From Deltaproteobacteria bacterium (lineage in GTDB: Bacteria; Myxococcota_A; Polyangia; Fen-1088), in assembly GCA_033763315.1 (NCBI GenBank), contig JANRKS010000022.1:96001-160000 (forward strand): a stretch of DNA of 64,000 nucleotides, read 5' to 3'. The position numbers and the translations under genes are program-made. The notes below the pieces were generated by a model. It searched no databases and was not told the origin of the DNA. It worked only from the letters and a program-made list of their open reading frames with translations. Each line of letters begins with the position of its first letter. The stretch's first letter is position 1. Below, one piece after another: positions 2,310 to 19,583 of this stretch.

Positions 2310-2983
2310 GGGTTACTCCTTTGGTTGATCTCGATCACTTGTGACATTGAAACTTTTTGTGAACCGATGCGCAGCGCGGGGGCGCCGCTCTCGAATGAAA
2401 CGCCTTCAACAATTCCGTGCGAGCGCATGTCAACGGCCACATCTTTGCCGTTGGCATCCTTGGCTTTGATCTCCACCTTGTAGGAGCCATCTGGCGCAAA
2501 GCTGCCGTCGTCGCGTTTGCCATCCCAGGGCACCTCGATGGCGCCCGCGTTGTGGCCGCCGAGCTTCAAGGTGCGAATCACGCGTGTGCCATCAGAGATG
2601 GTGGCGGTGATTTCGCTGGCGGTGGCACCAAGATAAGCGCCGGCCGAGGTGCTTGTGCCGGCTTTCCAATCAATGGCGTCGGTGTGGAACATGGCATCGC
2701 GGCCAACGAAGTTCGTGGCTGCCATCTGCGAGTTGGTGGCTTGCGCCAGCAGGATGTCATCCAAACTTGTGTTGGCCTTTTGCAGCTGTTCGACTGAAGT
2801 GAACTGCGCCAACTGTGTGGCCAGCTCTTGGCTGTCCTGCGGCTTGGTTGGATCTTGGTTCTGCATCTGCGCCAACATCAGTTTCAAAAACTGATCTTTG
2901 CCAAGCTCGCTCGAACCCTTGCGATCGGTGGCCTTGGGCGGCGTGGCCGTCGCGGTGGCGTTTAAGATTTGTTGAACATCCAT
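2306..2983 (-). CDS. flgD: Flagellar hook capping protein FlgD
   Basis: LGKDQFLKLMLAQMQNQDPTKP..QLAQFTSVEQL and WDGKRDDG..PDGSY (FlgD Ig domain). Confidence 0.97.
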   Translation of the reverse strand: MDVQQILNATATATPPKATDRKGSSELGKDQFLKLMLAQMQNQDPTKPQDSQELATQLAQFTSVEQLQKANTSLDDILLAQATNSQMAATNFVGRDAMFHTDAIDWKAGTSTSAGAYLGATASEITATISDGTRVIRTLKLGGHNAGAIEVPWDGKRDDGSFAPDGSYKVEIKAKDANGKDVAVDMRSHGIVEGVSFESGAPALRIGSQKVSMSQVIEINQRSNP

Positions 2984-2994
2984 GACGTTTGTTC

Positions 2995-5900
2995 CTACGC
3001 TTTGATGTGAACGCGGCCTGCACGGCGAATGCGTGATGTATCGCCAGAAACCGGACGCTCACCCGGTGACTCTGCATGCCCCGTGCCGGCGTTCTCGTCA
3101 GCGTCCTGACGCGCGTTCGGATCGCTTGAGCGCTGGCGGTCAGACGTTTCGCTGAAAGTGCCACGCCGATCCTCGACGTGAAAGCGTCCAAGCGTGAGGC
3201 CTTCTTTGGAAAGATAGGCCTCAAGGTCACGGCCATGAGCGCCGAGCTGCGCGGCCGCTTGGCCATCTGCAGAAACGTCAGCGACGCCTTGCCGTACACG
3301 CACGTGCAAAGACAAAGCGCCACCGTCGGTTTGCACAGACACGCGCGCTTCGTTGTTGTTGAAGTCCACCTTCGCTTGCGAAAGTTCGATCATGTCGGCG
3401 GCGGCGAACGCCGTCTGCTTTGGCTCAGTGACCTTTGCGGGTGCGGCCAATGATGGTGATGGTGGCGCCGATGGTTGTGCATTCGCGGCGACAGGGGGAA
3501 CGACCGTCGGGTTGGTGACGGGGGCAGCGCCCGGCAAGGGTGCGCTCGTTGCGGGGAGGGATGGGTTGGGGTCAACGTTGTGACGGGCGCGAGGTTCGTC
3601 TGCGTTTGGCCCGGCAGCTTGTGCCGGCTTTGCGGGCGCGCTGGGCACAATGTGCCCCGCGGGCGTGGTGGGGTCAGAGGCCTGCGGCAATGCCGTTGTT
3701 GGCTGCGATGCTTCAACAGTCTTTGCGGCCTCGATAGATCGTTCAGTGCGCCGCGGCTGAGCAAGGGTCGCGCGAGGCGGCTGAAGCGCTTGCAGATCAA
3801 CGGGCCAAGCACGTACAGGTGCGGCACCGGCGGGCACCGGCGCTTGAGCTTGAACGAGCACGGGGCTAACTGGGGCCGGCGCCGGATGCGGCGCGACGGT
3901 CGTTGGCTTAAGATCGGCAGCGGTCGCGCTGGGTTCGCTCGCTTGTGCACGAACGGCCTTCACATCCGCAGGCGCTGTGCGCGCGACCTGCTCGACAGGC
4001 GCTGTGCGATCCGCGTTTTGAACCGCCGCCGCGATGACAGCTACGTTATGATTTTCAGCAGGGCCGGCGCCCCGTAGATTGCGAGCCGCAGGTTGTTGCC
4101 CCGTGCGAACCGTGTTGTGATCCGCGGGCGCAGCGCGAAACACTTTCTGTTCTGCAGCCCCTCGACGAAGGGCGCTTTGCGCCGCGGGCTCGGTGCGAGG
4201 CGTGATCTGTGCTTGTGGCTCAACCACAAAGGGTGCTCCCGCGTTGATAACGGCTGGGGTATTGGGCGCGCGTGCTATGGCCAGCGGTGCTGGCTCTGAG
4301 GCTTTGCCCACCTTTGGTGAAGGTCGCAGCGACGCGGCTTCGCTCGCACCCGAGGGCGTGGCGGGCAACGACACGCGCGCTGCGACCGTAGGGGTCAACT
4401 CGGGCGACGTGACAACGAACGTTCGTGACTGTGAAGACGGCGTGGTCGCTGCATTAGGCGCAGGCGTCACCGCGGGTTTTGCAATCACGGGAGGCGCGGC
4501 AGTCGCTGTGTTGATCACTGGCACAACATGGACCGCGGGCGATTCAGAGGGAGCCATGGCCTTCGCAGGCACGGGCGCATCGGGTGCGGCAACCACGACT
4601 GCAGGGGTTGCATGTTTGGCCACCGTCGCAGGGGTTTGGATGGGGGCCGACGGCACGCGTGGCGTGATGAAGGCCGGCGGAGACGTCACAGGCCCCACGG
4701 CACGCGCGGTGGATGGCCTGGCAACCGTTGGCGCAACGTCGGTAAATGCATTCGTCTGCGGTGATGGCGCCACAGAGTTGGGCGTGATCGCACCTTTTTC
4801 ACGAACCCGGGCTTGCGATGCCGGCGCTGGCGAGGATCCAACCGCAAGGCTTGTGACAGCCGGCGGAACCGGAGCAGGAAACAGCGGCGCAGGCGCCACC
4901 ACAGGCTGCGTGAACCATGACGTAGGCGATGAGTTCGCAGGCGGTGCAAGGTCGTCAGTGTCTGACGGTGTCCTCACGCGTTCACCCTCGGGCTCGGGCG
5001 CCAGGGGACGCGGGTTGGGCTTCGGCACGACGTTGTGGGCGGCCGGGGGCGACGTGGGCAAGAGCGAAGTCACGTCGAGATTGCTCTGCTGTGGCTCCAC
5101 TTGGGGCTCTCGCGCAGGCGGTGAGCTGTTGACCGCGCCCAGCACAGCGGGCGTCAAGGTCGCGGCCACCGGGGGAGGTAGGGGCGTAGGTGTTCGGCGC
5201 GAACGCGGCATCACGAAGCGTGGCTCGGGCAGCGCAGGCGCGCGCTCGACGCCGAGTGCGTGATCGCTTGATGTTGTGACTACGGACGAACCGGACTGCA
5301 AAGTCGACATCGTTGACTCCTGCTCGGCCATGAAACGTGCGGTTGTAAGCTGGGCGAAGGCTTCTACGTTCGTGTGTGAAGGATCCAATAGAGGTGGCTT
5401 ATCCGTCATAGGGGCAAGCACGTACGGTGCTGCAAAAACGGGTTCGGTTGGAACCGCAGGCTTCGTCTGCACGCTGGTGGCGCGGGCAGGTTGCGAAACG
5501 GGCGGCGGAACAGCCCAGCCCACCGCCGCAAGCGGGGCTTCCTTGCGCTCAGGAAGTGAATCGCGGGGCGGCAAAGGTTGCGCAAACGGCGCGTGTTCAG
5601 CGCGCGGGCGTGAAGGTGCCGGCATCGATCGAACGAGCACCGTTGCAGGTTGGTTGTGAAGCTCAAGGGGCACCATGGCCGCATTGGCGACAACGGGCGC
5701 CGTGGGCAGCGGGTCGCTCCTCATCAATGAAAACGGTCGAGACGCAACCTTGCGCAAAGGTTGTTCTTGCGCAGCTGGTGTCACGGGCGGCTGCGAAACC
5801 GTGGGCGGCGGGATCGGTTGATGTTCAGCGGCAGGCACAGACACAGGTTCGCTCTTGGCCCCTTCGAATGCCTCCGGCGGCAAGAGCGTTTCGGGAGGCG

Positions 5901-6402
5901 GGTTGATCCAACCTGGCAAGGCCGTTGAGGGCGTCGCATCGGGCGTTGAAGGCGGCGGTGCAGAAACTTGGGGGTGAAACGCCGCTACGTCGCTCGGAAG
6001 CGCAGCGTGATCGGACACCCGCGCGCGGGACGGCGTTGCGCTCGCCTCGGGCACTGAATGACCGTGGTCGCGCGCTTCGTGCCCTTGCACCTGCAGCGAT
6101 GCCAAATGCTTTTCCGACTCCGGCGACTCGGGCAACGCCTGGTGCTTGTGTACCTGCGGCAATGCCGAATGCTTTTCCGACTCCGGCGACGCCTGATGGT
6201 TTTGCGATTCCGGCAACGCTTGATGCTGAACCCACGCGGCGCGGTTGTCCTTTTGAGGGGCATCGCCGTGCTGGGCAATGGCCAACGCGAGCTTCGCCAC
6301 AAACGCTGTATCCGCCGTCTCAACCGGAGCCTTGACGTCGGCTTGCCGACCAACGTCGAGCATCGCGTTGCGGAAGGCCGCAGGCAAAACCTGCGGTTTC
6401 AC
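2995..6402 (-). CDS. fliK: Very long (1135 aa) flagellar hook-length control protein FliK
   Basis: Pro/Ala-rich disordered body with a C-terminal T3S4-like domain (EARVSVQTDGGALSLHVRVRQGVADV...LEAYLSKEGLTLGRFHV). Lies immediately upstream of flgD. Confidence 0.75.
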   Translation of the reverse strand: MKPQVLPAAFRNAMLDVGRQADVKAPVETADTAFVAKLALAIAQHGDAPQKDNRAAWVQHQALPESQNHQASPESEKHSALPQVHKHQALPESPESEKHLASLQVQGHEARDHGHSVPEASATPSRARVSDHAALPSDVAAFHPQVSAPPPSTPDATPSTALPGWINPPPETLLPPEAFEGAKSEPVSVPAAEHQPIPPPTVSQPPVTPAAQEQPLRKVASRPFSLMRSDPLPTAPVVANAAMVPLELHNQPATVLVRSMPAPSRPRAEHAPFAQPLPPRDSLPERKEAPLAAVGWAVPPPVSQPARATSVQTKPAVPTEPVFAAPYVLAPMTDKPPLLDPSHTNVEAFAQLTTARFMAEQESTMSTLQSGSSVVTTSSDHALGVERAPALPEPRFVMPRSRRTPTPLPPPVAATLTPAVLGAVNSSPPAREPQVEPQQSNLDVTSLLPTSPPAAHNVVPKPNPRPLAPEPEGERVRTPSDTDDLAPPANSSPTSWFTQPVVAPAPLFPAPVPPAVTSLAVGSSPAPASQARVREKGAITPNSVAPSPQTNAFTDVAPTVARPSTARAVGPVTSPPAFITPRVPSAPIQTPATVAKHATPAVVVAAPDAPVPAKAMAPSESPAVHVVPVINTATAAPPVIAKPAVTPAPNAATTPSSQSRTFVVTSPELTPTVAARVSLPATPSGASEAASLRPSPKVGKASEPAPLAIARAPNTPAVINAGAPFVVEPQAQITPRTEPAAQSALRRGAAEQKVFRAAPADHNTVRTGQQPAARNLRGAGPAENHNVAVIAAAVQNADRTAPVEQVARTAPADVKAVRAQASEPSATAADLKPTTVAPHPAPAPVSPVLVQAQAPVPAGAAPVRAWPVDLQALQPPRATLAQPRRTERSIEAAKTVEASQPTTALPQASDPTTPAGHIVPSAPAKPAQAAGPNADEPRARHNVDPNPSLPATSAPLPGAAPVTNPTVVPPVAANAQPSAPPSPSLAAPAKVTEPKQTAFAAADMIELSQAKVDFNNNEARVSVQTDGGALSLHVRVRQGVADVSADGQAAAQLGAHGRDLEAYLSKEGLTLGRFHVEDRRGTFSETSDRQRSSDPNARQDADENAGTGHAESPGERPVSGDTSRIRRAGRVHIKA
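3073..3088 (-). promoter_or_regulatory. Putative sigma54 promoter for flgD-flgE inside the fliK 3' end
   Basis: Minus strand CGGCACGGGGCATGCA, correct GG-N10-GC spacing, about 90 nt upstream of the flgD ATG. Confidence 0.55.
6091..6190. repeat. In-frame 63-bp-period tandem duplication within fliK
   Basis: AATGCTTTTCCGACTCCGGCGAC at 6105-6127 and 6168-6190; similarity extends to 6091-6127 / 6154-6190. Peptide SPESEKH occurs twice and HQALPES twice. Confidence 0.85.
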
Positions 6403-7457
6403 TTTGTGGCCTTCTTCCGTCGATCCTCGCGCGCCGCGATCTCTGATGCCAAAGCGGCAGCACGCTCGGGATTCATCAGGCCCATCACCTTGCCCGCGTC
6501 ACGCGAAGGCATCCGCTCCATCAGATCGCCGGCCAAGGTCAGCGGCAACCTTTCAGTGATCGCTGCCGCCTGCGCGGGCTTCATGCCGCGCATCGCTTTT
6601 GACAAGACCTCAAGCGGCGTGGGTGGCGTTGGGCCTTTGGGTGCGAGGGCCGACTTTGCCTCCAACGCTTTCGCCTCTTCAGTGGCCTTCGCCTCAGCCT
6701 CGACCTTCTTCGCTTGTTCCTTTTCGGCCTGCTTCTTGTTCTTGATCTCGATGGTTTGCGCGCGCACCTCGTCTAGGTAAGCCGCAAGCTTCTCGGTGTC
6801 CTGCCGCAGTTGCTTTTGTGCGATGTCCAAAGCGCCGGCCAGTTCGCCGATGCGCTCGCGCTCGCGCAACAGGTTGTTGCGTTCGATCTCGGCGGGTGAA
6901 TTCGCGATCTCCGCGTGCAAAGCTTCCAACGTCAACGAAGGCGGCGCTGTGTCCTTGCGAGTGACCGCGTGTTCATTCTTTTGCGGTACGGGGGGCGGCG
7001 GACGTTCCGCGGGCGTTTTGGGCGGCGCCGGCTCTTTGGCGTGTTCAGCCTCTGGCGCAGCGGCAGCGGCTTCGCCTGATGCCTCTGCCGCTTCAGTCTT
7101 GCCAGCCTTGTGTGCCTTTGCCTCTTTGGGGGCCTCAACCTTACCCCGTGGTGGCACCGCAGCTTTCGCCTCAACAGGGGCCTTCACTTCAGATGCGGGT
7201 GCCTTCGCGGCCGTCGCGTCAGTTTTGCTTGGCGGGGTTGCCGGCGCAGGCGCGGCCTTGGCCTCGGGCGTTTTTCCGGGCGCAGCGGGGGCCGCGGCCA
7301 CGGGCGGCGCGGGGGCCGCGGCCTCAGGTACCTTGGGCGATGCAGGTGCTTTGGCAGACGGGGCCGCGGGCGCGTCGGCGCCAAACGCCGCGCCATGCAA
7401 GTTGAGCATTGCCACCACAAACAACGCCGCGCGGGCGCTCCACGCAAAGCTACGCAT
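6399..7457 (-). CDS. MotE/YlxF-like (MgtE-N domain) exported flagellar protein
   Basis: Signal peptide (..GAAFGA), Pro/Ala linker, coiled coil, then C-terminal MKPAQAAAI...MPSRDAGKVMGLMNPERAAAL. Sits at the ylxF position between fliI and fliK. Confidence 0.75.
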   Translation of the reverse strand: MRSFAWSARAALFVVAMLNLHGAAFGADAPAAPSAKAPASPKVPEAAAPAPPVAAAPAAPGKTPEAKAAPAPATPPSKTDATAAKAPASEVKAPVEAKAAVPPRGKVEAPKEAKAHKAGKTEAAEASGEAAAAAPEAEHAKEPAPPKTPAERPPPPVPQKNEHAVTRKDTAPPSLTLEALHAEIANSPAEIERNNLLRERERIGELAGALDIAQKQLRQDTEKLAAYLDEVRAQTIEIKNKKQAEKEQAKKVEAEAKATEEAKALEAKSALAPKGPTPPTPLEVLSKAMRGMKPAQAAAITERLPLTLAGDLMERMPSRDAGKVMGLMNPERAAALASEIAAREDRRKKATK

Positions 7458-8787
7458 AGTTGTCTTCTCCCTGTCCTTCCAACGCCCGGCGGATCTGCGA
7501 CAAGGTGTCCACCAAGTTGTAACGCTCGCTCATGCTTTGCCGAAACAGCGCTAACAGCTTTGGCACAACCTTCAATGCGCGATCGAGCCGCGGGTTCGAT
7601 CCCGCCACGTACGCGCCCACCTCCACAAGATCTGATGATTCGGCGTAAACGCCGAGCATCTCGCGCACACGTCCCGCCAGTTGCCTGTGGTCCGCCGAAA
7701 CCACGTCGTTCATCACGCGACTAACGCTGGCCAAAATATCGATGGCTGGATAGTGCCCACCGTTGGCCAACTTGCGCGACAACACCACGTGCCCATCCAG
7801 TGCCGCGCGCGCCGCATCGGCCACGGGCTCTGACATGTCATCGCCCTCCACGAGCACTGTGTACATGGCCGTGATGCTGCCCTTGCCCGCGCCGTTGCCC
7901 GCGCGTTCAACCAAGCGAGGCAGCAGCGCAAAGACAGACGGCGGGTAACCGCGCGACGTCGGTGGCTCGCCCGCCGCCAAACCAATCTCACGTTGAGCCA
8001 TCGCCACGCGGGTCAGCGAATCCAACATCAGCAACACGCGCATGCCTTGCGAGCGAAAGTATTCTGCCGCGGAAGTCGCGGCCATCGCAGCCCGCACACG
8101 CACCAAAGGCGGCTCATCCGCGGTGGCCACCACAACAACCGAACGCGATAAACCCGGGCCCAAATCACGTTCAACGAATTCACGCACCTCGCGGCCGCGC
8201 TCGCCCACCAGACCCACAACGATGATGTCGGCGCTTGCGCTGCGGGCCAACATGCCCAACAAGCTGCTTTTGCCCACGCCCGGGCCGGCCATGATGCCCA
8301 CGCGTTGACCTTCGCCGCACGTCAACACGCCGTCCATCGCACGCACGCCCGTGATCATGGGGTGTGCAATGCGTTCACGCGCCATCGGTGACGGCGGCGG
8401 CGCATTCAACGACGCCCGGCCTGGCAACACCAGCGGGGGCCCGCCGTCCATCGGCTCCATCGCTGCATTCACCACGCGCCCCAAAAGCGCCGAGCCCACC
8501 GGGATCTCGCCTGCCCGTCGACGCGGGATCACAGGGCAACCTTCGCCAATGCCGCTGATGTCGCCAAAGGGCATCAACAGCGCTTTTTGCCCAGAAAAAC
8601 CCACAACTTCGGCCACGATGGTCTTGCCACCTTTGGCACGAAGCTCACACGCTGTGCCCAACGCCACCTGCGGCAGTGTGGCTTCAATCGTGATGCCCGA
8701 CGCATGAATCACGCGCCCTGCGCGCACAACCGTTTCAGCGTCCGCCACAACCGCACGCATGCGCTTGAGATCCAACAAGCGTGTCAC
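7450..8787 (-). CDS. fliI: Flagellar export ATPase FliI
   Basis: GQRVGIMAGPGVGKS Walker A, GERGREVREF, DSLTRVAMAQREIGL, GYPPS, YPAIDILASVSR. Confidence 0.97.
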   Translation of the reverse strand: MTRLLDLKRMRAVVADAETVVRAGRVIHASGITIEATLPQVALGTACELRAKGGKTIVAEVVGFSGQKALLMPFGDISGIGEGCPVIPRRRAGEIPVGSALLGRVVNAAMEPMDGGPPLVLPGRASLNAPPPSPMARERIAHPMITGVRAMDGVLTCGEGQRVGIMAGPGVGKSSLLGMLARSASADIIVVGLVGERGREVREFVERDLGPGLSRSVVVVATADEPPLVRVRAAMAATSAAEYFRSQGMRVLLMLDSLTRVAMAQREIGLAAGEPPTSRGYPPSVFALLPRLVERAGNGAGKGSITAMYTVLVEGDDMSEPVADAARAALDGHVVLSRKLANGGHYPAIDILASVSRVMNDVVSADHRQLAGRVREMLGVYAESSDLVEVGAYVAGSNPRLDRALKVVPKLLALFRQSMSERYNLVDTLSQIRRALEGQGEDNYA

Positions 8788-9686
8788 GTGTCGTCTCCCG
8801 CCATCGCCTCTTGCAGCAAGCGGCGCATCTCATCTAAGCGCGTGGTGAGGCGACCGTCGACAATGCCAAAGTCCGCGTCCACCATGCAATCACCCAAAGC
8901 CAGCTCCGCGTCGGGGCTGATCTCCACCTGCACGATCGCCATCGTTGATACCGCCCTGCCTCCGCCGGCCGCTTCCACCCGTTTGGCGTCGTCAGGATGC
9001 AAGCGAACGACGATCCGCCGGCTTTCACCGGCGCGGCGAATCACCGAGCGAATGACTGAAAAAAAGCGTTCCACATTTGTGGAGAGCTCCGCTTCCAGGA
9101 TCCGGCGCGACACCAGCAACGCCAATTCCAAGGCATCCGATCGCGCTTGTTCGGCCAAACGTTCGGAGGTTAACCGCATCGCAGAAACGGCCGCTGCCAC
9201 ACGTTCAGCGAACTCAGCGGATCCAGGCGCAGGCAGTTGAACTTGAGGCACCATCGGCTCCGGTGGCGGCGCAACAACCGTCGCGGGTGGTGGGGCGTGG
9301 TCAATCGGCGCGACCTGTGACGGCACCTGTGCGGCCACCAACGCTTCAGGATCGACATCCAGAGCTTCGCCGTATCCTTCGGGCAACCCGCCTTCGCCTT
9401 CGCCGTAGCCATCATCAACAGGCTCAGCGCGCGGCGGTGCGGGTGGCGCTTGCTCGAATTGCATTGTGTGTGAAGCAGGGTTGCGCTTCGGCCCCGTGCC
9501 GCGCGTCACCAGCGAGACTTTCGGCATCGATCGATGCGGCTTCACGTCACTGCGGGGCAGTTCGGCAAACACCGCGGTTTTCGCGCGGCGTTTTGCATCG
9601 TCGCCGCGCAGAAAGTTCGGCAGCAGCGCGTCCTGCGCTTCTTCCAAGGGTTCTTGGGCAGACGTGTCGGGTCCCTCGGGTTCCAA
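8784..9686 (-). CDS. fliH: Flagellar assembly protein FliH
   Basis: C-terminal IVVRLHPDD...PDAELALGDCMVDADFGIVDG. Lies between fliG and fliI. Confidence 0.88.
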   Translation of the reverse strand: MEPEGPDTSAQEPLEEAQDALLPNFLRGDDAKRRAKTAVFAELPRSDVKPHRSMPKVSLVTRGTGPKRNPASHTMQFEQAPPAPPRAEPVDDGYGEGEGGLPEGYGEALDVDPEALVAAQVPSQVAPIDHAPPPATVVAPPPEPMVPQVQLPAPGSAEFAERVAAAVSAMRLTSERLAEQARSDALELALLVSRRILEAELSTNVERFFSVIRSVIRRAGESRRIVVRLHPDDAKRVEAAGGGRAVSTMAIVQVEISPDAELALGDCMVDADFGIVDGRLTTRLDEMRRLLQEAMAGDDT

Positions 9687-9698
9687 ACGCAGCCTCCG

Positions 9699-10730
9699 TT
9701 AAACCATCTTGTCTGCGGGGCCCACCATCGTGATGCGCCCTTGCTCCGCCAATGTGAAGGCAATCTTCACCAGCTCGGCCTGCGCTTCGTCGACGGCCGA
9801 AAGCTTCATCGCGCCCATGCTCGCCACTTCGTCGCGCAACATCTCGGCGCCACGTGTGGACATGTTCTTGAGGATCTTGTCGCGCACCGCCTCGGCCGAG
9901 CCTTTGAGAGCCACACCCAAGCGACCCGTATCCACTTCGCGCAAGAACGTTTGCACGTCGCGGTCGGATAGGTTCACCAAGTCCTCGAACGTGAACAAAC
10001 GCGAGCGCAACTCGGCCGCCAACTCTGGATCGTTCTCCTCGATCGCTTGCACGACCTCGGTTTGTTGCGCCACAGGCGCGCGACGCAACAGATCCACGGC
10101 AGCGCCGCGGCCATCGAACTGGCGCATGCCACCCGCGGCGGACGCGCGCAATTCCAACGCCAAAGCGGCCGCCACTTCCCGCAGAATTTCAGGGGAAACG
10201 GATTCAAGCGTCGCCAAGCGCGCCAAAATGGGGCCACGGTTGGACTCTGGCAAGCGGCGCATCACTTGCCCCGCCCGCTCCCGCTCCATCGCGCCTAACA
10301 CCAACGCCACGGTCTGCGGCTGTTCACGCGAAAGCACCATCGCAAGGGCTTCCGGATCCGCATTCGCGATCGGGCCCAACGCTTCGTCAACGGCTGGAGG
10401 CGCCGCCAAGCCGTCGAAGGCCCGGCTGGCGCGTTCGGCGCCCAACACCTGCATGGCCACGGCGCGCAGCATGTTGTCGCCAGCGGCGGCGTCACCACCC
10501 ACGGCTTCAAGCGCGCTTACAAATTCCTTAAGCGCCTCAGGGATGGCGTTCTTATCCTTGCGCAGCTCCTTGGCGCCCAACGCGATCTTTCGCACGGTGC
10601 CTTCTTCCAGGAAGCGGAACACTTGCGCGGCGAATTCGGGGCCGAGCCCCACCAACACCGCCGCCGCACGACACGTGCCCGGACCAGCCACTTCACGCGG
10701 GAGCTCTTCTTCGTCATCAGCTGGCAGCAC
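9699..10730 (-). CDS. fliG: Flagellar motor switch protein FliG
   Basis: RAAAVLVGLG, REQPQTVALVL (EHPQ-like), LFTFEDL, NMSTRGAEMLRDE. Confidence 0.95.
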   Translation of the reverse strand: MLPADDEEELPREVAGPGTCRAAAVLVGLGPEFAAQVFRFLEEGTVRKIALGAKELRKDKNAIPEALKEFVSALEAVGGDAAAGDNMLRAVAMQVLGAERASRAFDGLAAPPAVDEALGPIANADPEALAMVLSREQPQTVALVLGAMERERAGQVMRRLPESNRGPILARLATLESVSPEILREVAAALALELRASAAGGMRQFDGRGAAVDLLRRAPVAQQTEVVQAIEENDPELAAELRSRLFTFEDLVNLSDRDVQTFLREVDTGRLGVALKGSAEAVRDKILKNMSTRGAEMLRDEVASMGAMKLSAVDEAQAELVKIAFTLAEQGRITMVGPADKMV

Positions 10731-12330
10731 GTCGCGCCTCCTGTTGTTCGGCTTGTTCCTCGAGATCGGCTTGGATCCAGGCCTTCAGCATCAAAGCGGC
10801 GCGTTCTGGATCCTGCATTGCCAACTCGCGTGCACGGTCGCGGATGACGACGTTCGGATCGGCCAGCGCAGGACGCTCGGGAATCGTGCTTGCAACCAAG
10901 GGCTGCGCGTCTTCGATGGCACGCTCAAGTTCAGCCACAGACGTACCTGGCTTGAGCATGGCCACTTCTTTTTGCACCTCTTGCTTGGCTTTCTTGCGGC
11001 GCATTGCAAACACAATGAGTGTGCCCGCCACCAGCAAGGCCGCCAAAGCGCCCGCGCTGATCTTTGCCACAGGCGTGGTGAAGAAGTTGACGGGCTTGTT
11101 CGCGGCCGCCCCTGCAGACGACGCGAACACTTCGCTGGTGATTTGAAATTGATCGCCGCGTGCCGCGTCGAAACCGACCGCGCTTTTTGCGAGCTCGCCA
11201 AGCCGCGCCACTTCTTGCGCCGTGCGGGGCTTGCCATTGACGCCATCCAACAACACCGCAACGCTTAAGCGCTGCACGCGCGGCGTCTTCGTCACTGTGT
11301 GCGTGGACGTCTTTGAGATCTCGAAGTTGCGAACTTCGTCTTCGCGCTTGCTGGCGCCGTTTTGCAAGGCGCCGGCCGCACCAGCCACTGTGGTAAGTGG
11401 TTGGTTGGCTGCGGCACCGGCCACGCCACCGGCTGAGGGTCCGCCTTGGCCTGTTTGTTCGTTGACCACGCGCTCGCTCCGTACCGCGCTGGCCTCGGGA
11501 TCGAACTTCTCTGAGTTGCTCTCCACTTGTGACGAGTCCAACGTCACTGAGATCTTCGCCTCAACCGCTTCGGTGCCCACCGCACGCGAAAGCAGCTGCA
11601 CCACGCGGCGTTCAAGCGCTTTTTCCATCGTGCGTTGTTCATCCGAAGCTTTGGCGCCCGGGCTTTCCTCGCCCGCAAGCACAGCCCCCTGCCCGTCCAT
11701 CACTGTGACGCTTTCGGCGCGCAGGCCCGGAACGGCAGACGCCACCAAATGACGAATGCCCTGCAACTCGCGATCGCCCAACTGACGGCCTGGTTGCAGA
11801 TTCACCACCACGGCCGCCGTGGCTTCTTTGTCTTCATCGCGGTAAAGGCCGTGTTGGCCAAACGTGATGTGAACGCGTGCCGAACGCACAGAGGAAAGGC
11901 GGCCGACGGTCCGTCCCAGTTCGCCTTCAGTGGCGCGCCGCAAATTGATCTTCTGCGTGAATTCGGAGACGCCCAGATCGCCCTTGTCGAAGATCTCAAA
12001 GCCCACCCCGCCACCGCGTGGGATGCCGGAGCTGGCCAGCAACAGCCGTGCGTCGTAAACCTTGGACGCAGGCACAGCCAGCGCGGTTCCATTGGCTTCC
12101 AAGCGGAACGGCACGCCCGTGGCCTTCATCTGTGCCGCCGCTTCAGCCGCGTCTTCTGGTGTCAGGTTTGTGAAGACGTATTGGTACGTGCCACCTGACG
12201 AAAGGATCGACGCCACAATGATGGCGGTGATAAGAACGCCCACCGCCCCGACGACCGCAAGCTTCATCAGGTTCGTGAGCGCCCAAAAGCGCTTCGGCAG
12301 ATCTTTGAGCTGGTTCAGCAGCGGTTCCAC
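10717..12330 (-). CDS. fliF: Flagellar M-ring protein FliF
   Basis: GVGFEIFD..GVSEFTQKIN.RRATEGELGRT, SARVHI, HLVASAVPGL, AVGFDAARGD; two transmembrane segments. Confidence 0.97.
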   Translation of the reverse strand: MEPLLNQLKDLPKRFWALTNLMKLAVVGAVGVLITAIIVASILSSGGTYQYVFTNLTPEDAAEAAAQMKATGVPFRLEANGTALAVPASKVYDARLLLASSGIPRGGGVGFEIFDKGDLGVSEFTQKINLRRATEGELGRTVGRLSSVRSARVHITFGQHGLYRDEDKEATAAVVVNLQPGRQLGDRELQGIRHLVASAVPGLRAESVTVMDGQGAVLAGEESPGAKASDEQRTMEKALERRVVQLLSRAVGTEAVEAKISVTLDSSQVESNSEKFDPEASAVRSERVVNEQTGQGGPSAGGVAGAAANQPLTTVAGAAGALQNGASKREDEVRNFEISKTSTHTVTKTPRVQRLSVAVLLDGVNGKPRTAQEVARLGELAKSAVGFDAARGDQFQITSEVFASSAGAAANKPVNFFTTPVAKISAGALAALLVAGTLIVFAMRRKKAKQEVQKEVAMLKPGTSVAELERAIEDAQPLVASTIPERPALADPNVVIRDRARELAMQDPERAALMLKAWIQADLEEQAEQQEARRAAS

Positions 12331-12333
12331 AGA

Positions 12334-12654
12334 TTAACCACCCATCCTCATGACGCTTTGATACGCCTCAAGCACCTTCGACTTGACCTTGAGCGCCAGG
12401 CGCATCGAGATGTTCGCCTTCTCAAGCGCAATCGACATCTCGTGCAGATTGCCATCGCCCATCGCGACCTTCTTCACTTCGCTGTCGGCATCCAACTGCA
12501 AGCGATCCAACTCGCCCACGGCCTTGGTCAAAACGTTGCCGAAGTTCTCGCCGCCCGGCTTGGACGCGGCTTGCACGTCGCGCAGCGATTCGGAGCGTGA
12601 GCTGCCCGAAAGGTTTTCGACGGCCAGCGATTGAATGCGGTCTTCGATGTTCAT
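12334..12654 (-). CDS. fliE: Flagellar hook-basal body protein FliE
   Basis: NLHEMSIALEKANISMRLALKVKSKVLEAYQSVMRM. Confidence 0.95.
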   Translation of the reverse strand: MNIEDRIQSLAVENLSGSSRSESLRDVQAASKPGGENFGNVLTKAVGELDRLQLDADSEVKKVAMGDGNLHEMSIALEKANISMRLALKVKSKVLEAYQSVMRMGG

Positions 12655-12662
12655 GCTTTACC

Positions 12663-13079
12663 TCAGCGCGCGATGTCCAAGGCACGCATCGCCATGCCTT
12701 TGACGGTTTCCACCGCCGTGGCATTGGCTTCATAACCGCGCGAGGCCGACATCAAGTTCACAACCTCATGGATGGGGTTGACGTTGGGAAACGTCACAAA
12801 GCCTTCGGGGTCGGCGTCGGGGTGGCCCGGGCTGTACACGCGGCGGCCTTGCGTTTGATCTTGCACCACCTGCGACACGCGCACCGCTGAAGGCCCGTCG
12901 CCATTGAGATAGGCATCAAATGGCACCGACTCAACCACAGGATCAAGCCGCTTGTAGGGCCCCCCTTGTGCCGTACGCGTGACCTCTGCGTTCGCCAGAT
13001 TGGACGAAGCCAAATTTACGCGGGCACGTTCCACTGAAAGACCCGAGCCACTGATTCGAAGAGCTGTGAAAAAGTCCAT
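12663..13079 (-). CDS. flgC: Flagellar basal-body rod protein FlgC
   Basis: ISGSGLSVERARVNLASSNLANAEVTRT, PGHPDADPEGFV..PNVN, ASRGYEAN. AGGAG RBS precedes ATG 13079. Confidence 0.97.
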   Translation of the reverse strand: MDFFTALRISGSGLSVERARVNLASSNLANAEVTRTAQGGPYKRLDPVVESVPFDAYLNGDGPSAVRVSQVVQDQTQGRRVYSPGHPDADPEGFVTFPNVNPIHEVVNLMSASRGYEANATAVETVKGMAMRALDIAR

Positions 13080-13113
13080 CGTCGCACTCCTTGCGCAAAA
13101 CTTCACGCGCGGC

Positions 13114-13524
13114 TTACGAGCCCTCGCTCACCACATATTTCAAAATCGCAAGCTTGGCGTTGGCCGCGCGTGCGTTGGCGCCGTATTGAATGGCGTTTTC
13201 GGCCATCGCCGACATCGTCGTGTCGAGATCCACTTCGTTGCCATCGAACGAGGGCGTGCCGCCGGCCACGCGATGAACAAACGAATCGACATCGGCGCCC
13301 GTTCCATTGGTTTCGCCGCTGGTGTCCATGTGCATAGGCTGCGTGTGCGCCAACGGCTGCACGTCCTGCATCGCTTGGCTCATGGCTGCCATGAAGTCGA
13401 TGTCTTTGGGCTTAAATCCCGGCGTGTCTGAGTTTGCGATGTTTCCCGACAACACACCCTGACGCGCCAGCCGCACGTCCAGCGAGCGCTCTACCTGGGT
13501 CAAAGTTGTGTCGAAAATCTTCAT
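13114..13524 (-). CDS. flgB: Flagellar basal-body rod protein FlgB
   Basis: RQGVLSGNIANSDTPGFKPKDIDF, DGNEVDLD..M..N. Confidence 0.97.
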   Translation of the reverse strand: MKIFDTTLTQVERSLDVRLARQGVLSGNIANSDTPGFKPKDIDFMAAMSQAMQDVQPLAHTQPMHMDTSGETNGTGADVDSFVHRVAGGTPSFDGNEVDLDTTMSAMAENAIQYGANARAANAKLAILKYVVSEGS

Positions 13525-13531: not shown

Positions 13532-14656
13532 TCACGCAGCTTGTTCTGCAGCCTTATCCTGCGAAGACCGTGCCACCTTCACGTCACGTTCTTGGCGGGT
13601 CACAGAGGCGCTATCGACCTCCTGTGCCACCTCCATAACCACACCCGCCTGCCGCCAGGCCTTCAGCTTGTTCCGCAGCGTGCGCAAGCTGATCCCCAGC
13701 AGGCGTGCGGCGTGCGTGCGGTTGCCAGACACCCGTCGCAACGCCTCTTGAATCGCCATGCGTTCAAGTTCGCCCAAATCGACCGGCAAAGCCCAGGTGC
13801 TGGGTGGCTTGGCGGGCGGCGCTTCAGCTTTGGCGCGTTCACTGCTGGCCGGCATACGCGGATCAAAAAAGAAGTCGCTTGACTCAAGCACCGGCTGCCG
13901 GCAACGAATGAGAGCGCGCTCAATCAGATTTCGCAGCTCGCGCACGTTACCGTCAAAGCCATAGCCGTCGAGCGTGCTGAGCGCTGACGCTGACAACACC
14001 GGCGGGGTGCGCCCCAAATCTTGCGACAAGCGATCCACGAAGTGACGCGCCAGGGCCTCGATGTCTTCCCGACGTTCACGCAAAGGCGGTATCACGATCG
14101 GAAACACACACAGCCGGTAATAAAGATCAGCGCGGAACCGTCCTGCCACGACTTCGGCGCGCAGATCCCGGTTCGAGGTTGCGACGATGCGCACATCCAC
14201 GGCCACGGGCGCGCGCCCACCCACGCGATCCACTTGCCGCTCTTGCAACACGCGCAGCAGTTTGGCTTGTAAGCCGAGCGGCAACTCCGACACTTCGTCG
14301 AGCAGAAGGGTGCCGCCGTTGGCTTGCTCAATGCGCCCGGGCCGCATTGCCGTGGCGCCCGAAAAAGCGCCCGCTTCATGGCCAAACAGCTCGCTTTCCA
14401 GCATATCTGCCGGCAAGGCCGCGCAGTTCAACGCCACCCACGGCCCGGCCACGCGCGCCGACAACTCGTGGATGAACCTCGCCACCACCTCTTTGCCCGT
14501 GCCGCTTTCACCTAACAGCAGCACCGTGGCATCCGTTTCGGCCACATCCGCCGCACAGGCCACGACGTTGCGCATGGCACCGCTGACCATCACTGGAAAG
14601 GACACGCCATTGGGTTGGCTTAAGCCCAACCCGTTTACGATCGCAACCATGCTCAA
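13532..14656 (-). CDS. sigma54-dependent activator, FleR/FlrC/FlbD(Caulobacter)-like, without receiver domain
   Basis: [55 protein letters not shown]. The AAA+ domain starts about 20 aa from the N-terminus, and the start overlaps the stop of the upstream gene. Confidence 0.9.
13560..13575 (-). promoter_or_regulatory. sigma54 promoter for the flgB operon
   Basis: Minus strand TGGCACGGTCTTCGCA, near-consensus -24/-12, about 35 nt upstream of the flgB ATG and inside the 3' tail of the upstream activator gene. Confidence 0.8.
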
Positions 14657-16086
14657 TCTCCCTTGTTCTCGCCCGCAAGCGGGCCCTTCGTTTTCGCATC
14701 TGCCGTCGCGGGTTTCGCGGGCGCTGACTCGTCTTTTCCGCTCAAGAACGAGTTGATCCGGGCAGATAAACCCAAAGCGGTGGCCAGCGTTTCAGCCGCA
14801 CTATCTGCCAGCGGTGGTGGTTTATCTTCTTCATTAACCTTCGGTTTGGGCGGCTCCCCACGGCGCATGAGCTTGCGCACGGCCTGCCAGCGCGCCGATC
14901 CCATTTGTTTGCGTAACCCACGCGCGTCGGCGAAATCGTAGATAACGCGCGCACGCACAGGGTCGTTGGCCATCAGGTACAGCTCTGCCGCGCGCACCAA
15001 GTGGTCTGACAGCGCGACGTCAGGCACCTCCCCTGACACGGCAGACAACAGGTTGGCGCCAAACGCAGGCGCGCTGAGTTTTGCGGCAACCTCGGCGCCT
15101 TCACGTGCCAAATCAACGGCCACAGGGCCCTTCGTGCGATCTGGCAGCAGCATGTAGACCTCCATCACCTTGCGCGCCTCATCGACGGTGACGTGACGAA
15201 GCGCGGTTAACACCAAACGCCGGCACAAAACGCCTGTGGGCAGTTGGCAAAACTTCTCGTCGTCGACGCTTTCAAAACGGCGCCGCATGGTTTCAACGGA
15301 ACGCACGAACATTCCTGCAAACGACAACGCCCGGGCGGAACGCAAAACCAGATCGTCGCGCAAAGGGCCGGGCAACGAATACGGATCAGGATCCAGCGAC
15401 GGCATATACACAATGCATTCGGGATCGAACTCGCACAGCCGCGCCGCGGAAAGGCGCCCATAAACACCCACGCGGCTGCCGAGCTCGTACCAACCTAACG
15501 CCGTTTGTGGATCGCCCGCGATGAGCGCCAGATCCCCCAAACGAACTTGCGCCAACAACAACGCATGTGAATTCAATGCCGAGCGAAACAGATTGGCAGC
15601 CTCGAGAAAACGCCCCTCGTGCAGCGCCTGCTCGGCACGCACCACCGCTCTTTCGCCGGCCCAACCATCGCCCATGTTCAGCACCTGCGGATCGAAATAG
15701 GTCACGGGTGGCCCATCGATGCCAAGCCGCCAAGGCAGCCCACGCAGTTCGTTGATGTCCAAGAACGTGTCGCGTCCCTCTTTCGTCAACACGGCGTCAA
15801 GCTGGGGCGTTTTGCAGCGCAGCTCCACATATGACTTTTCAACATGGATGTCGCTGCAGATTTGCCCGGCGGCCGCGCCGATTCGCGCGCCCAATTGAGC
15901 CACGTTTCCTGCGGTGTGCAGCCGTATCACTTGATCGAGCGGCACCACTTCCACCCTGATCGCTGAGCCAAACGGTGAAAGCTTGATGCGCTCAGCGGTG
16001 GCGGCGGTGGCCAAGCGAAGCGCGGGCGCGGGGGCACGCGATTCAGCCGGTTCCGTAAGCGCCAAGATTGTGACTAACCACCACAC
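14653..16086 (-). CDS. Exported TPR-like protein of the flagellar cluster
   Basis: Short hydrophobic N-terminus, a beta-rich region, then TPR-like helices ([36 protein letters not shown]). Stop overlaps the next start. Confidence 0.6.
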
Positions 16087-16099
16087 GCATGCTGTTCAA

Positions 16100-16190: not shown

Positions 16191-16225
16191 AAAGCAAAAC
16201 CCGCTTCAACTCGAAGCGGGTTTGC
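16191..16225 (-). terminator. Rho-independent terminator after the fleQ-like gene
   Basis: 11-bp stem AAACCCGCTTC/GAAGCGGGTTT with a 5-nt loop; on the minus strand the stem runs into TTTTGCTTTT. Confidence 0.75.
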
Positions 16226-16246
16226 CATGGAACAGCGAAATTGGCG

Positions 16247-17497
16247 CTAAATCTTCGATGATTCGCGACGACGCAGCTTCTCGACCAGCGTTGTGCGGCC
16301 CATACCCAACAAGCGCGCGGCTTCTTTCTTGTTGCCGCCCGTCTGCCCTAGCGCTGCATCTAAGTAGGCATTTTCCAGCTCGCGCAGCATCGTGGGCAGA
16401 TCCAACGGCAGCATCAACCGCACTGTGGGGAACGGCGGCCGATCGAAAACGCCCAGATCCAACACTTGCCCTGGCAACGTGAGCGGCGGCGGCGTCAACT
16501 CGTCGTCCACCACCGCAGGAGGCGTGCGTGAAGGCGGAATGAACGAAACCGGCGCTGGCGTGATTTCCGCGGGTGCACTCACAAGTTGTGGAGGTGCCAC
16601 GGGCGCGGCGAGCGGACGCTCATAACTTGTGAGCGTGGGAACGTAGATCTCACGGGAAACGCCGTCGTCCAGATCAAGCTGTGGCAGCGCTGCGTGACCT
16701 TCGGCGTGCCCCCCGAACTCCGGTGGCAGATCGTTGACCCGCACAACGGGGCCCTCGGTGCAAACAGAAAGCCGCTCCACGAGATTCTCAAGTTCACGCA
16801 CGTTGCCCGGCCAAGGGTAAGCCGAAAGCAGGCGCAAGACTTCTGGATCCACGGGGCGGGTCTCCCCCCGCGAGCGCCAAAAGTGAGCGAACAAAACCGC
16901 CACGTCGCCCGTGCGTTCACGCAAGGCGGGTAGTCGGATGGGACACACGAACAAACGGTAGTAAAGATCGCTGCGGAACCGCCCGGCTTTGACCTCCAAC
17001 GCGAGATCGCGGTTTGTTGCAGCAATCAACCGAAAGGTGGCGGTGACAGAATCAGAGCTTCCGACGGGCTCGTAGGTCCGCTCTTGCAGCAAGCGCAACA
17101 ACTTGACTTGCAGGCCCAGCGGCAACTCGCCGATTTCGTCCAAGAACAAAGTGCCACCCTCGGCCATGGCGACGCGGCCTTTGCGCGGGGTGGCGGCACC
17201 GGTGAAGGCCCCCTTGACGTAACCGAACAGTTCGCTCTCAAGCAGGTTCTCAGGAATGGCGCCGCAATTGACGGGAACGAACGGACGCGTCGCCCGGGGG
17301 CTGCTGGCGTGAATGAAGCGTGCGAACACCTCTTTGCCCGTGCCTGTTTCGCCCGTCAAAAGCACCGTGGCGTCGCTGACCGCGATCCGCCCACAGGCGC
17401 GGCGCGTCTCAGCCAAAGGCGAGCCAGCACCGTGGACCAAGCCAGAGCCAGCCTTCGCCACCTGCAAACCCTCTACAGATACCGCATGAACTGCCAT
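16247..17497 (-). CDS. fleQ: FleQ/FlrA-like flagellar master sigma54 activator lacking the N-terminal domain
   Basis: [48 protein letters not shown] and HTH recognition helix RTTLVEKL (FleQ/FlrA signature). ATG 17497 preferred; the ORF track starts at 17542. Confidence 0.8.
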
Positions 17498-17510
17498 CTT
17501 GATGGTTTCT

Positions 17511-17537
17511 GCATCGGCGGCCCTGAAGCACCCTTGA
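17511..17537 (-). promoter_or_regulatory. Putative sigma28-type promoter upstream of fleQ
   Basis: Minus strand TCAAG-N14-GCCGATGC. Confidence 0.5.
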
Positions 17538-17564
17538 GCCAAAAACGTGTCGTTTCGCTTTTTC

Positions 17565-17603
17565 GTCAGAACACGGACACAGCGACCGCGTCAAAAGTGC
17601 GGC
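17565..17603. promoter_or_regulatory. Two candidate FleQ-type boxes
   Basis: GTC-AGAACACG-GAC (17565-17578) and GTC-AAAAGTGC-GGC (17590-17603) fit the GTC-N8-GAC frame of Pseudomonas FleQ boxes. Confidence 0.4.
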
Positions 17604-17693
17604 GGCCTGCCGCATCATAGAAGACATCTCCTCTATCAAGAGGGTCACAACTTCAGGCGATACACCCATGGGGACGGGCTCCACAGCATCGAA

Positions 17694-18965
17694 ATGGCGG
17701 CAACAGGCAAAAGCGCACGTGTGATCTCCATTGGCGGGGGCAAAGGTGGCGTGGGCAAGAGCATCGTCGCTGGCAACCTCGCGGTGGCCTTTGCGCAAAT
17801 GGGGTTACGCGTGGTCTTGGTGGATGCCGATTTGGGCGCCGCCAACCAGCACACCTTGCTGGGCGTGGATCGAGCGTCCACAGGGCTCTTGGATTTCCTT
17901 GAACGGAAGGTGGAAACGCTATCCGAGGCCACTTCGCCCACCAACGTAGAGAACTTGCGTTTGGTGGTGGGCACGGGCGCGGTGCCAAACGCCGCCAACA
18001 TCAGTCACGCACAAAAGCAGAAGCTGATGCGACACATCCGTTCGGCAGACGCCGACGTGGTGGTGATCGATGTCGGCGCAGGATCGTCTCACAACACGGT
18101 CGACTTTTTCGACCTGGGCGACGCACGCGTGTTGGTGGTCACCGCACAATTGACGTCCATTCAAAACGCTTACGGCTTCCTCAAGGCCGCCGTGCTACGT
18201 CTGCTAAAGCACGCGTGCGTTGGCAAAGAACAGATCGATGTGTTCGATGCGTCGGTGGGTCTGCGTGAGACCGAGCGCATCGACGACATTCTAAGCCGCG
18301 TGGCACACGCAGATGCGGCGCTCGAAGGCCATCTGCGCGACGTGCTGGCCAGCTTCGACGTGCGCTTGGTGGGCAACCAAGTGGCGGAGAGCCAGGATAT
18401 GGGCATCTTCCGCGGCGTGGGCCGCATGGTGCGCGACTTTTTGGCGGTTCCGCTGCCCTTGGCGGGATTCTTGTCGCAAACGCGCGACGTACATGAATCT
18501 GTAAACCGGCGCACACCTGTGTTGCTGACCAACCCTCACGATGAAAACGCGCGGGCCTTGCGCGCCATTGCAGAGTCGCTGCTTATCCCGTTGCCCAGCC
18601 CCGAGCCAAGGCGCCCCCCCCACGCCGGACGCTTGCTCAACGGCGACGAAGACGTGGCGCAGGTGTTGCGACGCCACCCACGCCTGACTGTGGATTGGGT
18701 GGCGGCCATTGAACAAGCGGGGCGCATCACTTCGGTGCGCGTGATTGACGTCTCCGCGGGAGGCGTGGGCATCGTGACGCGCCTCAAGCTCACCGACGGA
18801 GATAAGTTCAACCTCATATTGAACCAGCCTCAGCTTAAACTGACGGTCCCAACCGTGGTGCGTAACGTGGAAGCCGACGGCACACGGGTGGGCTTGTCCT
18901 ACGTGGCCGAGGATGAAACGCCACTGAGGATTTTGAAGGTCGCGCGCGCCGATCTCACCCGGTAA
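17694..18965 (+). CDS. fleN: FleN/FlhG (MinD-family ATPase) fused to a C-terminal PilZ domain
   Basis: GGGKGGVGKS deviant Walker A, DADLGAAN, DVGAG, TSIQNAY. C-terminal RRHPR and DVSAGG are the PilZ RxxxR / DxSxxG motifs. Divergent from fleQ. Confidence 0.85.
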   Translation: MAATGKSARVISIGGGKGGVGKSIVAGNLAVAFAQMGLRVVLVDADLGAANQHTLLGVDRASTGLLDFLERKVETLSEATSPTNVENLRLVVGTGAVPNAANISHAQKQKLMRHIRSADADVVVIDVGAGSSHNTVDFFDLGDARVLVVTAQLTSIQNAYGFLKAAVLRLLKHACVGKEQIDVFDASVGLRETERIDDILSRVAHADAALEGHLRDVLASFDVRLVGNQVAESQDMGIFRGVGRMVRDFLAVPLPLAGFLSQTRDVHESVNRRTPVLLTNPHDENARALRAIAESLLIPLPSPEPRRPPHAGRLLNGDEDVAQVLRRHPRLTVDWVAAIEQAGRITSVRVIDVSAGGVGIVTRLKLTDGDKFNLILNQPQLKLTVPTVVRNVEADGTRVGLSYVAEDETPLRILKVARADLTR

Positions 18966-19026
18966 GCAAAACCAGGGCTTGGCGTGTGCAAGCCTGCACT
19001 GATAGGCTGCTCATTCTGTGTCCAAA

Positions 19027-19581
19027 ATGGAAAAGCCCAAGCGCGTCCCCTCCCCTGACAATCTGGTGTGGATCGATCTCGAGATGACCGGGCTTGACCT
19101 GGATCAGCACGTGATCATCCAGGCCGCCGTGATCATCACCGATGCGGAACTGCGTCCGCTGGAAGAGTTCGCCTGTGACGTGTGGCAGCCCGAAGCCGAC
19201 CTGGCGCGCATGTCCCCGTTCGTGCGTGAAATGCACGAGACCAACGGTTTAATAGAGCGCGTGCGTGCAAGCCGGTTTGATACGGGCGACGCGGAAAAGC
19301 GGCTGTTGGAACGCGTGGCAGGTTGGTGCACGTATCCCGCCACGGTGTGTGGCAACACGATCTGGCAAGATCGTAAGTTCATCGATAAATACATGCCGGG
19401 CCTCGGCCGCTATTTGCACTACCGGCTGATCGACGTCAGCTCACTTAAATCTTTGGCACAGCGGTGGTATCCCGATGCGGCGCCGTTTGCGAAGTCAAAG
19501 CAAGGCGAACATGACGCCTTGGTCGACATTCGCAATTCCATCGCTGAACTGGCCCATTACCGCAAAACAATCTTGCGCTAA
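19027..19581 (+). CDS. orn: Oligoribonuclease
   Basis: LVWIDLEMTGL, MHETNGL, GNTIWQDRKF..YMP, HYRLIDVSSLK.LA.RW, HDALVDIRNSIAEL.HYR. Confidence 0.95.
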   Translation: MEKPKRVPSPDNLVWIDLEMTGLDLDQHVIIQAAVIITDAELRPLEEFACDVWQPEADLARMSPFVREMHETNGLIERVRASRFDTGDAEKRLLERVAGWCTYPATVCGNTIWQDRKFIDKYMPGLGRYLHYRLIDVSSLKSLAQRWYPDAAPFAKSKQGEHDALVDIRNSIAELAHYRKTILR

Positions 19582-19583
19582 CG

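Follow-up and report, generated by a model that had tools for sequence, protein, structure and literature searches.

How is a flagellar transcriptional activator governed when it carries no sensory domain of its own, and could the gene that faces it supply the missing signal? The question is raised by a 64,000-nucleotide stretch of DNA (the window: positions 96001-160000 of contig C22, GenBank JANRKS010000022.1) from the assembly of a Deltaproteobacteria bacterium (GCA_033763315.1, genome G000; 7.6 Mb, 40 contigs), whose proteins have their named relatives among metagenome-assembled genomes (MAGs) of Polyangia and Myxococcota. Here, a sigma-54 enhancer-binding protein, which we term EBP2, is encoded head-to-head with a P-loop ATPase fused to a PilZ domain, which we term ATPase-PilZ; the outer ends of these two divergent open reading frames (ORFs) lie at 16247 and 18965. 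The original prediction took the pair for FleQ and FleN/FlhG, and proposed that the sensing of cyclic di-GMP (c-di-GMP) had moved from the former to the latter. We arrive at a different assignment. Judged from sequence, ATPase-PilZ would be a paralogue of FlhG/FleN and the predicted c-di-GMP-responsive partner, likely the anti-activator, of a sensor-less EBP2, a reading to which we give slightly less than an even chance. That the two genes form more than a chance neighbourhood is supported by their conservation.

The ATPase-PilZ frame is open on the plus strand from a GTG at 17547 to 18965, with a probable start at ATG 17694 that yields 423 residues. Searches with Pfam profiles returned ParA, CbiA and AAA_31 together with PilZ at 41.5 bits, well above the gathering score of 22.5 bits for PF07238, bearing out the claim of an ATPase with an intact PilZ domain. 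The RxxxR motif reads RRHPR (residues 326-330, nt 18669-18683) and the DxSxxG motif DVSAGG (residues 352-357, nt 18747-18764). In an alignment of relatives (27 rows), conservation of R326, R330, S354 and G357 is 90% or more, and both motifs recur in 12/12 of the family members compared, the second opening with D, E or N. In the ATPase half we find a deviant Walker A (GGGKGGVGKS) with its signature Lys17, as well as DADLG, IDVGAG and the Walker B Asp126. An AlphaFold2 (AF2) model (mean predicted local distance difference test score, pLDDT, 86.3; predicted template-modelling score, pTM, 0.69) resolves the protein into an alpha/beta domain resembling MinD, an insert of four helices (about 153-219), a linker that is disordered (301-320) and a PilZ-like beta-barrel with a terminal helix. 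The strands of the PilZ part fall within 331-403 and its helix at 409-422, in a block of pLDDT 88-96, an arrangement that fits the six-stranded barrel plus helix by which PilZ domains are recognised. The best Foldseek matches are FleN (5j1j, TM 0.86 on target) and FlhG (4rz3, 0.88), with MinD behind. FleN is also the best sequence match in the PDB (79 bits, E = 3.5e-21), over residues 8-165 only; next to this segment lies a helical insert of about 48 residues (approximately 166-225) that FleN does not have, FleN 171/184 aligning with 165/226 of the query. As had been proposed, PilZ occupies the C-terminus in place of a membrane-targeting helix, and no amphipathic helix is found there.

The identification of this ATPase as FleN/FlhG itself could not be sustained. 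A canonical FlhG of 290 residues is encoded on contig C27, in the gene order fliO, fliP, fliR, flhB, flhA, flhF, flhG, fliA, and matches the solved FleN with 236 bits over its full length, against the 79 bits of ATPase-PilZ. Read by eye, it ends in an amphipathic tail (...LKFMWQRLL...), as does MinD (...GILARLFG); minC and minD are located on contig C26. Moreover, a quick maximum-likelihood tree sets the fusion family (29 rows) apart from both the C27 FlhG and MinD with SH-aLRT support of 95. Because the C27 protein is the better FleN match, holds the flhF-fliA slot from which the ATPase-PilZ gene is absent, and is split from the fusions in the tree, we regard ATPase-PilZ as an FlhG-like paralogue and not as the FleN/FlhG orthologue. 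By these sequence comparisons the fusion is a member of a separate FlhG-like family that is widespread in Myxococcota. A paralogue of the same ATPase family, 440 residues long, lacking PilZ and ending in a basic tail, lies on contig C16 (locus L006, 8161-9483, plus strand) beside a Crp/cNMP-binding regulator, and a second ATPase copy of this C16 type is present in most relatives.

EBP2 can be read from a TTG at 17542 (431 residues) or, more probably, from ATG 17497 (416 residues), a start position shared by 8/8 orthologues and lying about 20 residues ahead of a conserved GLVHG motif; the frame ends at 16247 on the minus strand. Its Pfam matches are Sigma54_activat (223.9 bits), AAA_lid_14 and HTH_8. 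The AAA+ domain carries GAFTGA, the Fis-type HTH_8 at the C-terminus reads RTTLVEK, and a proline-rich linker of variable sequence joins the two. No Pfam domain and no FleQ-type (receiver-like) N-domain precedes the AAA+ domain, where only some 20 residues are present in all eight orthologues. The description of a sensor-less activator head-to-head with the ATPase, the two about 196 bp apart, therefore stands, while its naming as FleQ does not. Among solved structures EBP2 scores 259.3 bits with FleQ, 258.4 with ZraR and 251.1 with FlrA, a lead for FleQ of only 0.9 bit, and none of the NCBIfam equivalog models reaches its cut-off. The RTTLVEK stretch is identical to that of FleQ, which is suggestive but short.

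FleQ of Pseudomonas aeruginosa binds c-di-GMP at R144, R185, R334 and E330 (PDB 7ejw, 8p53, 8pb9), according to the available part of PMC10723142, against which our FleQ numbering was checked by means of the Walker A K180 and R185. Mapped onto the solved FleQ, EBP2 has G for R144, F for N186 and H for E330, and the counterpart of R334 falls within a 5-residue gap with arginines one or two positions off. The motifs GSGLV, ARFIH and AHFWR had been read as a lost FleQ site; four of the five mapped positions do differ, but R185 is kept. By this alignment the FleQ-type c-di-GMP site is mostly absent from EBP2. Such changes, together with FleQ being the best solved match and the shared RTTLVEK, are what one would expect if an ancestral c-di-GMP-binding FleQ had lost its N-domain and its site and the FleN of this genome had taken over sensing through an acquired PilZ domain. 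We consider this history very improbable. Another gene, intact and with its amphipathic tail, is the canonical FlhG/FleN orthologue, which contradicts the identity that this history requires of the ATPase; FleQ exceeds ZraR by less than one bit; and no relative with a FleQ-type site turned up, though no search aimed at one was made. Moreover, the corresponding activator in Nannocystales-type clusters bears an ordinary receiver (REC) domain, so loss of a receiver from EBP2 is likelier than loss of a FleQ domain. We found no evidence for a c-di-GMP-binding ancestor, and sensing cannot be said to have moved from one.

Sensor-less sigma-54 activators are, so far as known, under control in trans, PspF with PspA and HrpS with HrpV being examples. 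Like PspF and HrpS, EBP2 consists of AAA+ plus HTH only, with control expected from a separate protein; unlike ATPase-PilZ, the partners of PspF and HrpS are not P-loop ATPases, and no second messenger takes part there. Lacking a regulatory domain, EBP2 would be constitutively active unless controlled in trans, in the way of PspF by PspA and of FleQ by FleN. FleN binds and inhibits the AAA+ domain of FleQ, as stated in the available part of PMC10723142. By analogy, ATPase-PilZ would bind the AAA+ domain of EBP2 and damp its activity, and c-di-GMP bound at the linker/PilZ site would alter either the grip of ATPase-PilZ on EBP2 or the dimer state of the ATPase. Transcription of flagellar basal-body genes would thus be coupled to the c-di-GMP level, with a sign (more or less repression at high c-di-GMP) that is not predictable from sequence. 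Trans-regulation of EBP2 by ATPase-PilZ, modulated by c-di-GMP, appears to be the most economical account; beyond the domain assignments, we infer its steps. A predicted complex of EBP2 1-270 with full-length ATPase-PilZ, both supplied as alignments, gave a score of 0.00 and a mark of 0.32, which is not evidence either way.

The survey of the pairing covered, by a walk from fliF, every FliF-positive genome of the same family (n = 17, including G000). Nine of them, from at least seven genera (G000, G002, G004, G007, G010, G015, G016, G022 and G024), have an orthologue of EBP2 leading the flgB-fliF cluster, with ATPase-PilZ divergent from it; at two others (G008 and G009) contig ends make the site unreadable. 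In a genome of another family (G025), an EBP faces a divergent operon of histidine kinase, response regulator and ATPase-PilZ. The syntenic fusions fall into two sequence lineages that are only about 30% identical to each other: clade B, the syntenic proteins from outside the window's genus, matches the window protein with 30-37% identity over the ATPase part and 26-33% over PilZ. A quick tree separates the lineages, but by an approximately unbiased (AU) test their union in one clade is not rejected (p = 0.30). They may thus descend from one old, fast-diverging gene or be two paralogues in the same slot; either origin argues for a function at that slot. All seven clade-B proteins keep RxxxR and (D/E)xSxxG, and PilZ exceeds the Pfam cut-off in five of them. 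The signature lysine of Walker A, on the other hand, is gone in 6/7. With the PilZ motifs kept while this lysine is lost, the predicted c-di-GMP-binding half looks the more constrained.

The same seven proteins (L135, L136, L137, L143, L144, L145 and L147) have an N-terminal extension of 50-80 residues with a conserved G(R/x)RW(H/R)xP just ahead of the P-loop, which is absent from the window's protein.

Several observations weigh against a c-di-GMP-responsive partnership of ATPase-PilZ with EBP2. The pairing is absent at that site in 6/17 genomes (G001, G005, G011, G013, G014 and G018), from which it follows that EBP2 works without an adjacent fusion. One of them, G001, belongs to the window's own genus, and there the oligoribonuclease gene orn abuts EBP2 with no fusion at the site; the fusion's site in G005 and G018 is taken by ORFs that, judged only by eye, are receiver-like and kinase-like. 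The nearest relatives from outside the genus (52-54% identity; G005 and G037) lie outside flagellar clusters. That of G005 (54%) sits between LysR/SnoaL genes and a sulfatase gene, and that of G037 (52%), whose contig has no flagellar genes, is followed on the same strand by a receiver-bearing activator of the NtrC type; a further relative in G016 (46%) lies among genes for DNA ligase, a receiver, Smr and GAPDH. No neighbouring gene was common to 17 compared loci of the wider fusion family. With 27 PilZ matches and 52 sigma-54 activators in the genome, chance neighbours are not rare. The C27 FlhG, far more FleN-like than ATPase-PilZ, could itself be the anti-activator. Across 151 genomes of the phylum, FliE was found in 29/47 with a match to the ATPase (E<=1e-30) and in 31/104 without one (a table cross-tabulated by hand), and the ATPase core is not specific to flagella. 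Lastly, some PilZ proteins with intact motifs do not bind c-di-GMP; PlpA is reported to be such a case in the available text of PMC8316039.

Some of these points would be accounted for if ATPase-PilZ were a P-loop/PilZ effector of general use in Myxococcota and employed outside flagella, for example in the positioning of other cargo or the control of polysaccharide, and its adjacency to EBP2 a lineage-specific accident. This is a large family (of 8000 proteins scored, 1552 have E<=0.001), its fusions are found beside LysR, sulfatase, DNA ligase, GNAT, flotillin and other genes with nothing shared by the 17 loci, FliE is unmatched in 18 of the 47 phylum genomes that have the ATPase core, and same-genus G001 lacks the gene at the site. 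We nevertheless judge this improbable, the fusion being at the same site in nine genomes of at least seven genera; such a conserved slot makes a non-flagellar role less likely. The phyletic counts, which are descriptive only as related genomes are not independent, point the same way. Among 41 relatives, a match to the ATPase family at E<=1e-30 was present in 23/23 FliF-positive genomes and, as weak matches, in 6/18 FliF-negative ones, the other 12 having none. All five genomes with distant full-length fusions have FliE. The link between ATPase and flagella is weaker in the phylum sample than among the 41 relatives; there, only three matches reach into the PilZ part (G000, G097 and G103), each in a genome with FliE. 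As 60 of the 151 genomes gave a FliE match, flagellar genes are common in uncultured Myxococcota.

Some sigma-54 activator, of mixed architecture (GAF-, REC-), was present in the flanks of 14/80 related loci. Three MAGs of Chlamydiae/Chlamydiales (L046, L075 and L077) encode a MinD/FlhG-like ATPase, 33% identical to residues 26-293 of the window protein, that is immediately preceded on its own strand by a sigma-54 activator.

In Bacillus, Shewanella and Vibrio, FlhG has C-ring proteins and FlhF as its targets, and c-di-GMP most commonly reaches flagella through PilZ proteins of the motor-directed kind (YcgR, MotI), a subject on which PMC8203827 touches. The main rival to control of EBP2 is a post-transcriptional, FlhG-like part in assembly: a c-di-GMP-controlled FlhG/MinD-type assembly or placement factor for flagellar proteins (the C-ring, an FlhF-like landmark or the motor). 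The FlhG-type fold, the conserved place in the flagellar cluster and the phyletic link with flagella would suit such a factor as well as those precedents do. We rate it as unlikely, if a serious contender. A full canonical FlhF-FlhG pair is already present in the genome, and the fusion is without the helix by which FlhG and MinD are targeted to the membrane. Moreover, the gene is always divergent from the activator and never inside the structural operons, and the lysine needed for MinD-type cycling has been lost from 6/7 proteins of one lineage.

The c-di-GMP-responsive partnership with EBP2 also has a bolder form. In flagellated Polyangia, the master activator may have no sensors and be governed in trans by a dedicated FleN-like reader of c-di-GMP through its own PilZ domain, which would be the first MinD/ParA-type protein switched directly by c-di-GMP and, in one lineage, an ATPase-decayed clamp on a sigma-54 activator, operated by c-di-GMP alone. 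Taken as a whole this is doubtful, and we offer it with clearly less confidence than the pairing of ATPase-PilZ with EBP2 as such.

The pair stands at the head of a minus-strand flagellar array that runs from 17.5 kb down to 1 kb of the window, from EBP2 through a 477-residue protein (unk477) and a second activator, EBP1, to the structural genes (Table 1). Like EBP2, EBP1 consists of AAA+, lid and HTH_8 only and has no domain at its N-terminus; among NCBIfam models FlbD fits it best, at 367 bits, under the cut-off of 750. Every cluster whose contig extended far enough has EBP2 and the TPR-like gene, but tblastn gave no EBP1 match between the TPR-like gene and flgB in G010, G013 and G011 (loci L136, L149 and L150). 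With no Pfam match of its own, unk477 is kept between the activators, at 32-63% identity, by all the family clusters examined. Its neighbours in a language-model look-up are flagellar TPR/DUF7494 proteins ('PflA') from Campylobacterota, with a score of 0.93, which serves as a lead only. It was considered as a trans-regulator of EBP2 and rejected, its nearest language-model neighbours being, with the same reservation, periplasmic TPR/PflA-like flagellar proteins. Two minus-strand ORFs between fliI and flgD (2995-6402, 1135 residues; 6399-7457, 352 residues) have no Pfam match at E<=1e-5 and might, by position, be FliK/FliJ-like.

Table 1. Features of the flagellar array and of the EBP2/ATPase-PilZ pair, in window coordinates.
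Feature	Position	Strand	Evidence
flgB, flgC, fliE, fliF, fliG, fliH, fliI, two unassigned ORFs, flgD, flgE	1017..13524	-	Pfam/ORF list
EBP1, second sigma-54 activator, directly upstream of flgB	13532..14656	-	Pfam, NCBIfam, synteny
unk477, conserved 477-residue protein between EBP2 and EBP1	14653..16086	-	synteny, language-model look-up
Terminator-like hairpin, 12-bp stem then T-run, 24 nt past the EBP2 stop	16197..16223	-	terminator scan
EBP2, sigma-54 enhancer-binding protein, 416 residues	16247..17497	-	Pfam, NCBIfam, PDB alignment, 8 orthologues
EBP2/ATPase-PilZ divergent intergenic region, about 196 bp	17498..17693	.	conserved blocks with same-genus G002
FlhG/FleN-like P-loop ATPase fused to PilZ (ATPase-PilZ), 423 residues	17694..18965	+	Pfam, alignment, PDB search, AF2, Foldseek
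ATPase domain, residues 8-300	17715..18593	+	alignment, PDB match, AF2, Foldseek
PilZ domain, residues 322-423	18657..18965	+	Pfam, alignment, AF2
Oligoribonuclease-type RNase_T gene (orn), 53 nt downstream of ATPase-PilZ	19018..19581	+	Pfam, synteny

The hairpin behind EBP2 is the strongest of 16 sites in the terminator scan (mean for shuffled sequence, 7.9) and suggests that EBP2 is transcribed alone. Within the intergenic region, blocks at about 17535-17600 are common to G000 and same-genus G002 (locus L118), for example around AAAAACGTGTCGT and ACGTCAGAA..CGGACAC, and these could be operator or promoter elements. A scan for sigma-70 promoters returned 0 sites in 13400-19700. The genome has one copy of rpoN, and the sigma-54 pattern TGGCAC-N5-TTGC, allowing at most two mismatches, gave 103 matches against 120.7 expected and is not enriched; two of its sites, just upstream of flgB (13561-13575, minus strand) and of unk477 (16101-16115, minus strand), are indistinguishable from chance.

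Orn degrades pGpG, the breakdown product of c-di-GMP. The adjacency of the oligoribonuclease-type gene is seen only in the window's genus (G000, G001 and G002); in the window, a PKD-domain gene comes after it. On contig C27, the gene that comes straight after fliA in the flhA-flhF-flhG-fliA cluster (locus L007, 6380-7894, minus strand) codes for an HDOD-GGDEF protein, possibly another link of c-di-GMP to the flagellar regulon.

To our knowledge, control of flagellar transcription by c-di-GMP has been described only through direct binding to the activator, as in FleQ and FlrA. The present arrangement resembles FleQ-FleN of P. aeruginosa in joining a sigma-54 flagellar activator with a MinD/FlhG-type ATPase whose fold is closest to FleN, and in an input of c-di-GMP, predicted here. 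It differs in that the candidate receptor is the PilZ domain on the ATPase, FleQ's c-di-GMP residues being mostly absent from EBP2 along with the FleQ N-domain. Unlike FleN, the ATPase of the window, a paralogue, has a helical insert of 48 residues and lacks a membrane helix, and the true FlhG/FleN orthologue is a separate gene. With FlhG (YlxH/MotR; PDB 4rz2/4rz3), which regulates flagellar number and place together with FlhF, it shares the ATPase superfamily and the deviant Walker A, and FlhG is its second-best structural match; in contrast to FlhG, it lies outside flhF-flhG-fliA and has PilZ instead of the C-terminal amphipathic helix. YcgR, FlgZ, MotI and MotL likewise combine a canonical PilZ domain, with RxxxR and [D/N]xSxxG, and a flagellar context, but are PilZN-PilZ or stand-alone PilZ proteins acting on the motor, and we know of none fused to a P-loop ATPase. 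In cellulose secretion, as far as the available sources describe it, the MinD-type BcsQ provides a SIMIBI ATPase alongside the c-di-GMP receptors BcsE and BcsA-PilZ; there, unlike in the fusion, ATPase and receptors are separate proteins and the output is secretion, not transcription.

Databases label proteins of the fusion architecture 'P-loop NTPase' or 'flagellar biosynthesis protein FlhG' (JGI). No description of it was found in the available text of the literature on PilZ with FlhG, ParA, MinD or P-loop architecture, of which the figures and supplements may list it. The same limit applies to a survey of PilZ proteins (preprint 10.1101/814665), the text of which mentions MinD, ATPase and FlhG 0 times, and to a census of Myxococcus xanthus PilZ proteins (PMC8316039), where ParA and MinD are absent from the text; the figures or supplements of either may include the fusion.

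In summary, we class the finding as a variant of control of the FleQ-FleN type and not as a categorically new system. If the receptor is the ATPase partner, the same regulatory logic would have been wired a second way. Moreover, if this is true, the MinD/ParA (SIMIBI) ATPases would join the effectors of c-di-GMP. Gliding is what the phylum Myxococcota is mostly known for, and in its uncultured members the pair gives flagellar regulation a point of access that can be tested.

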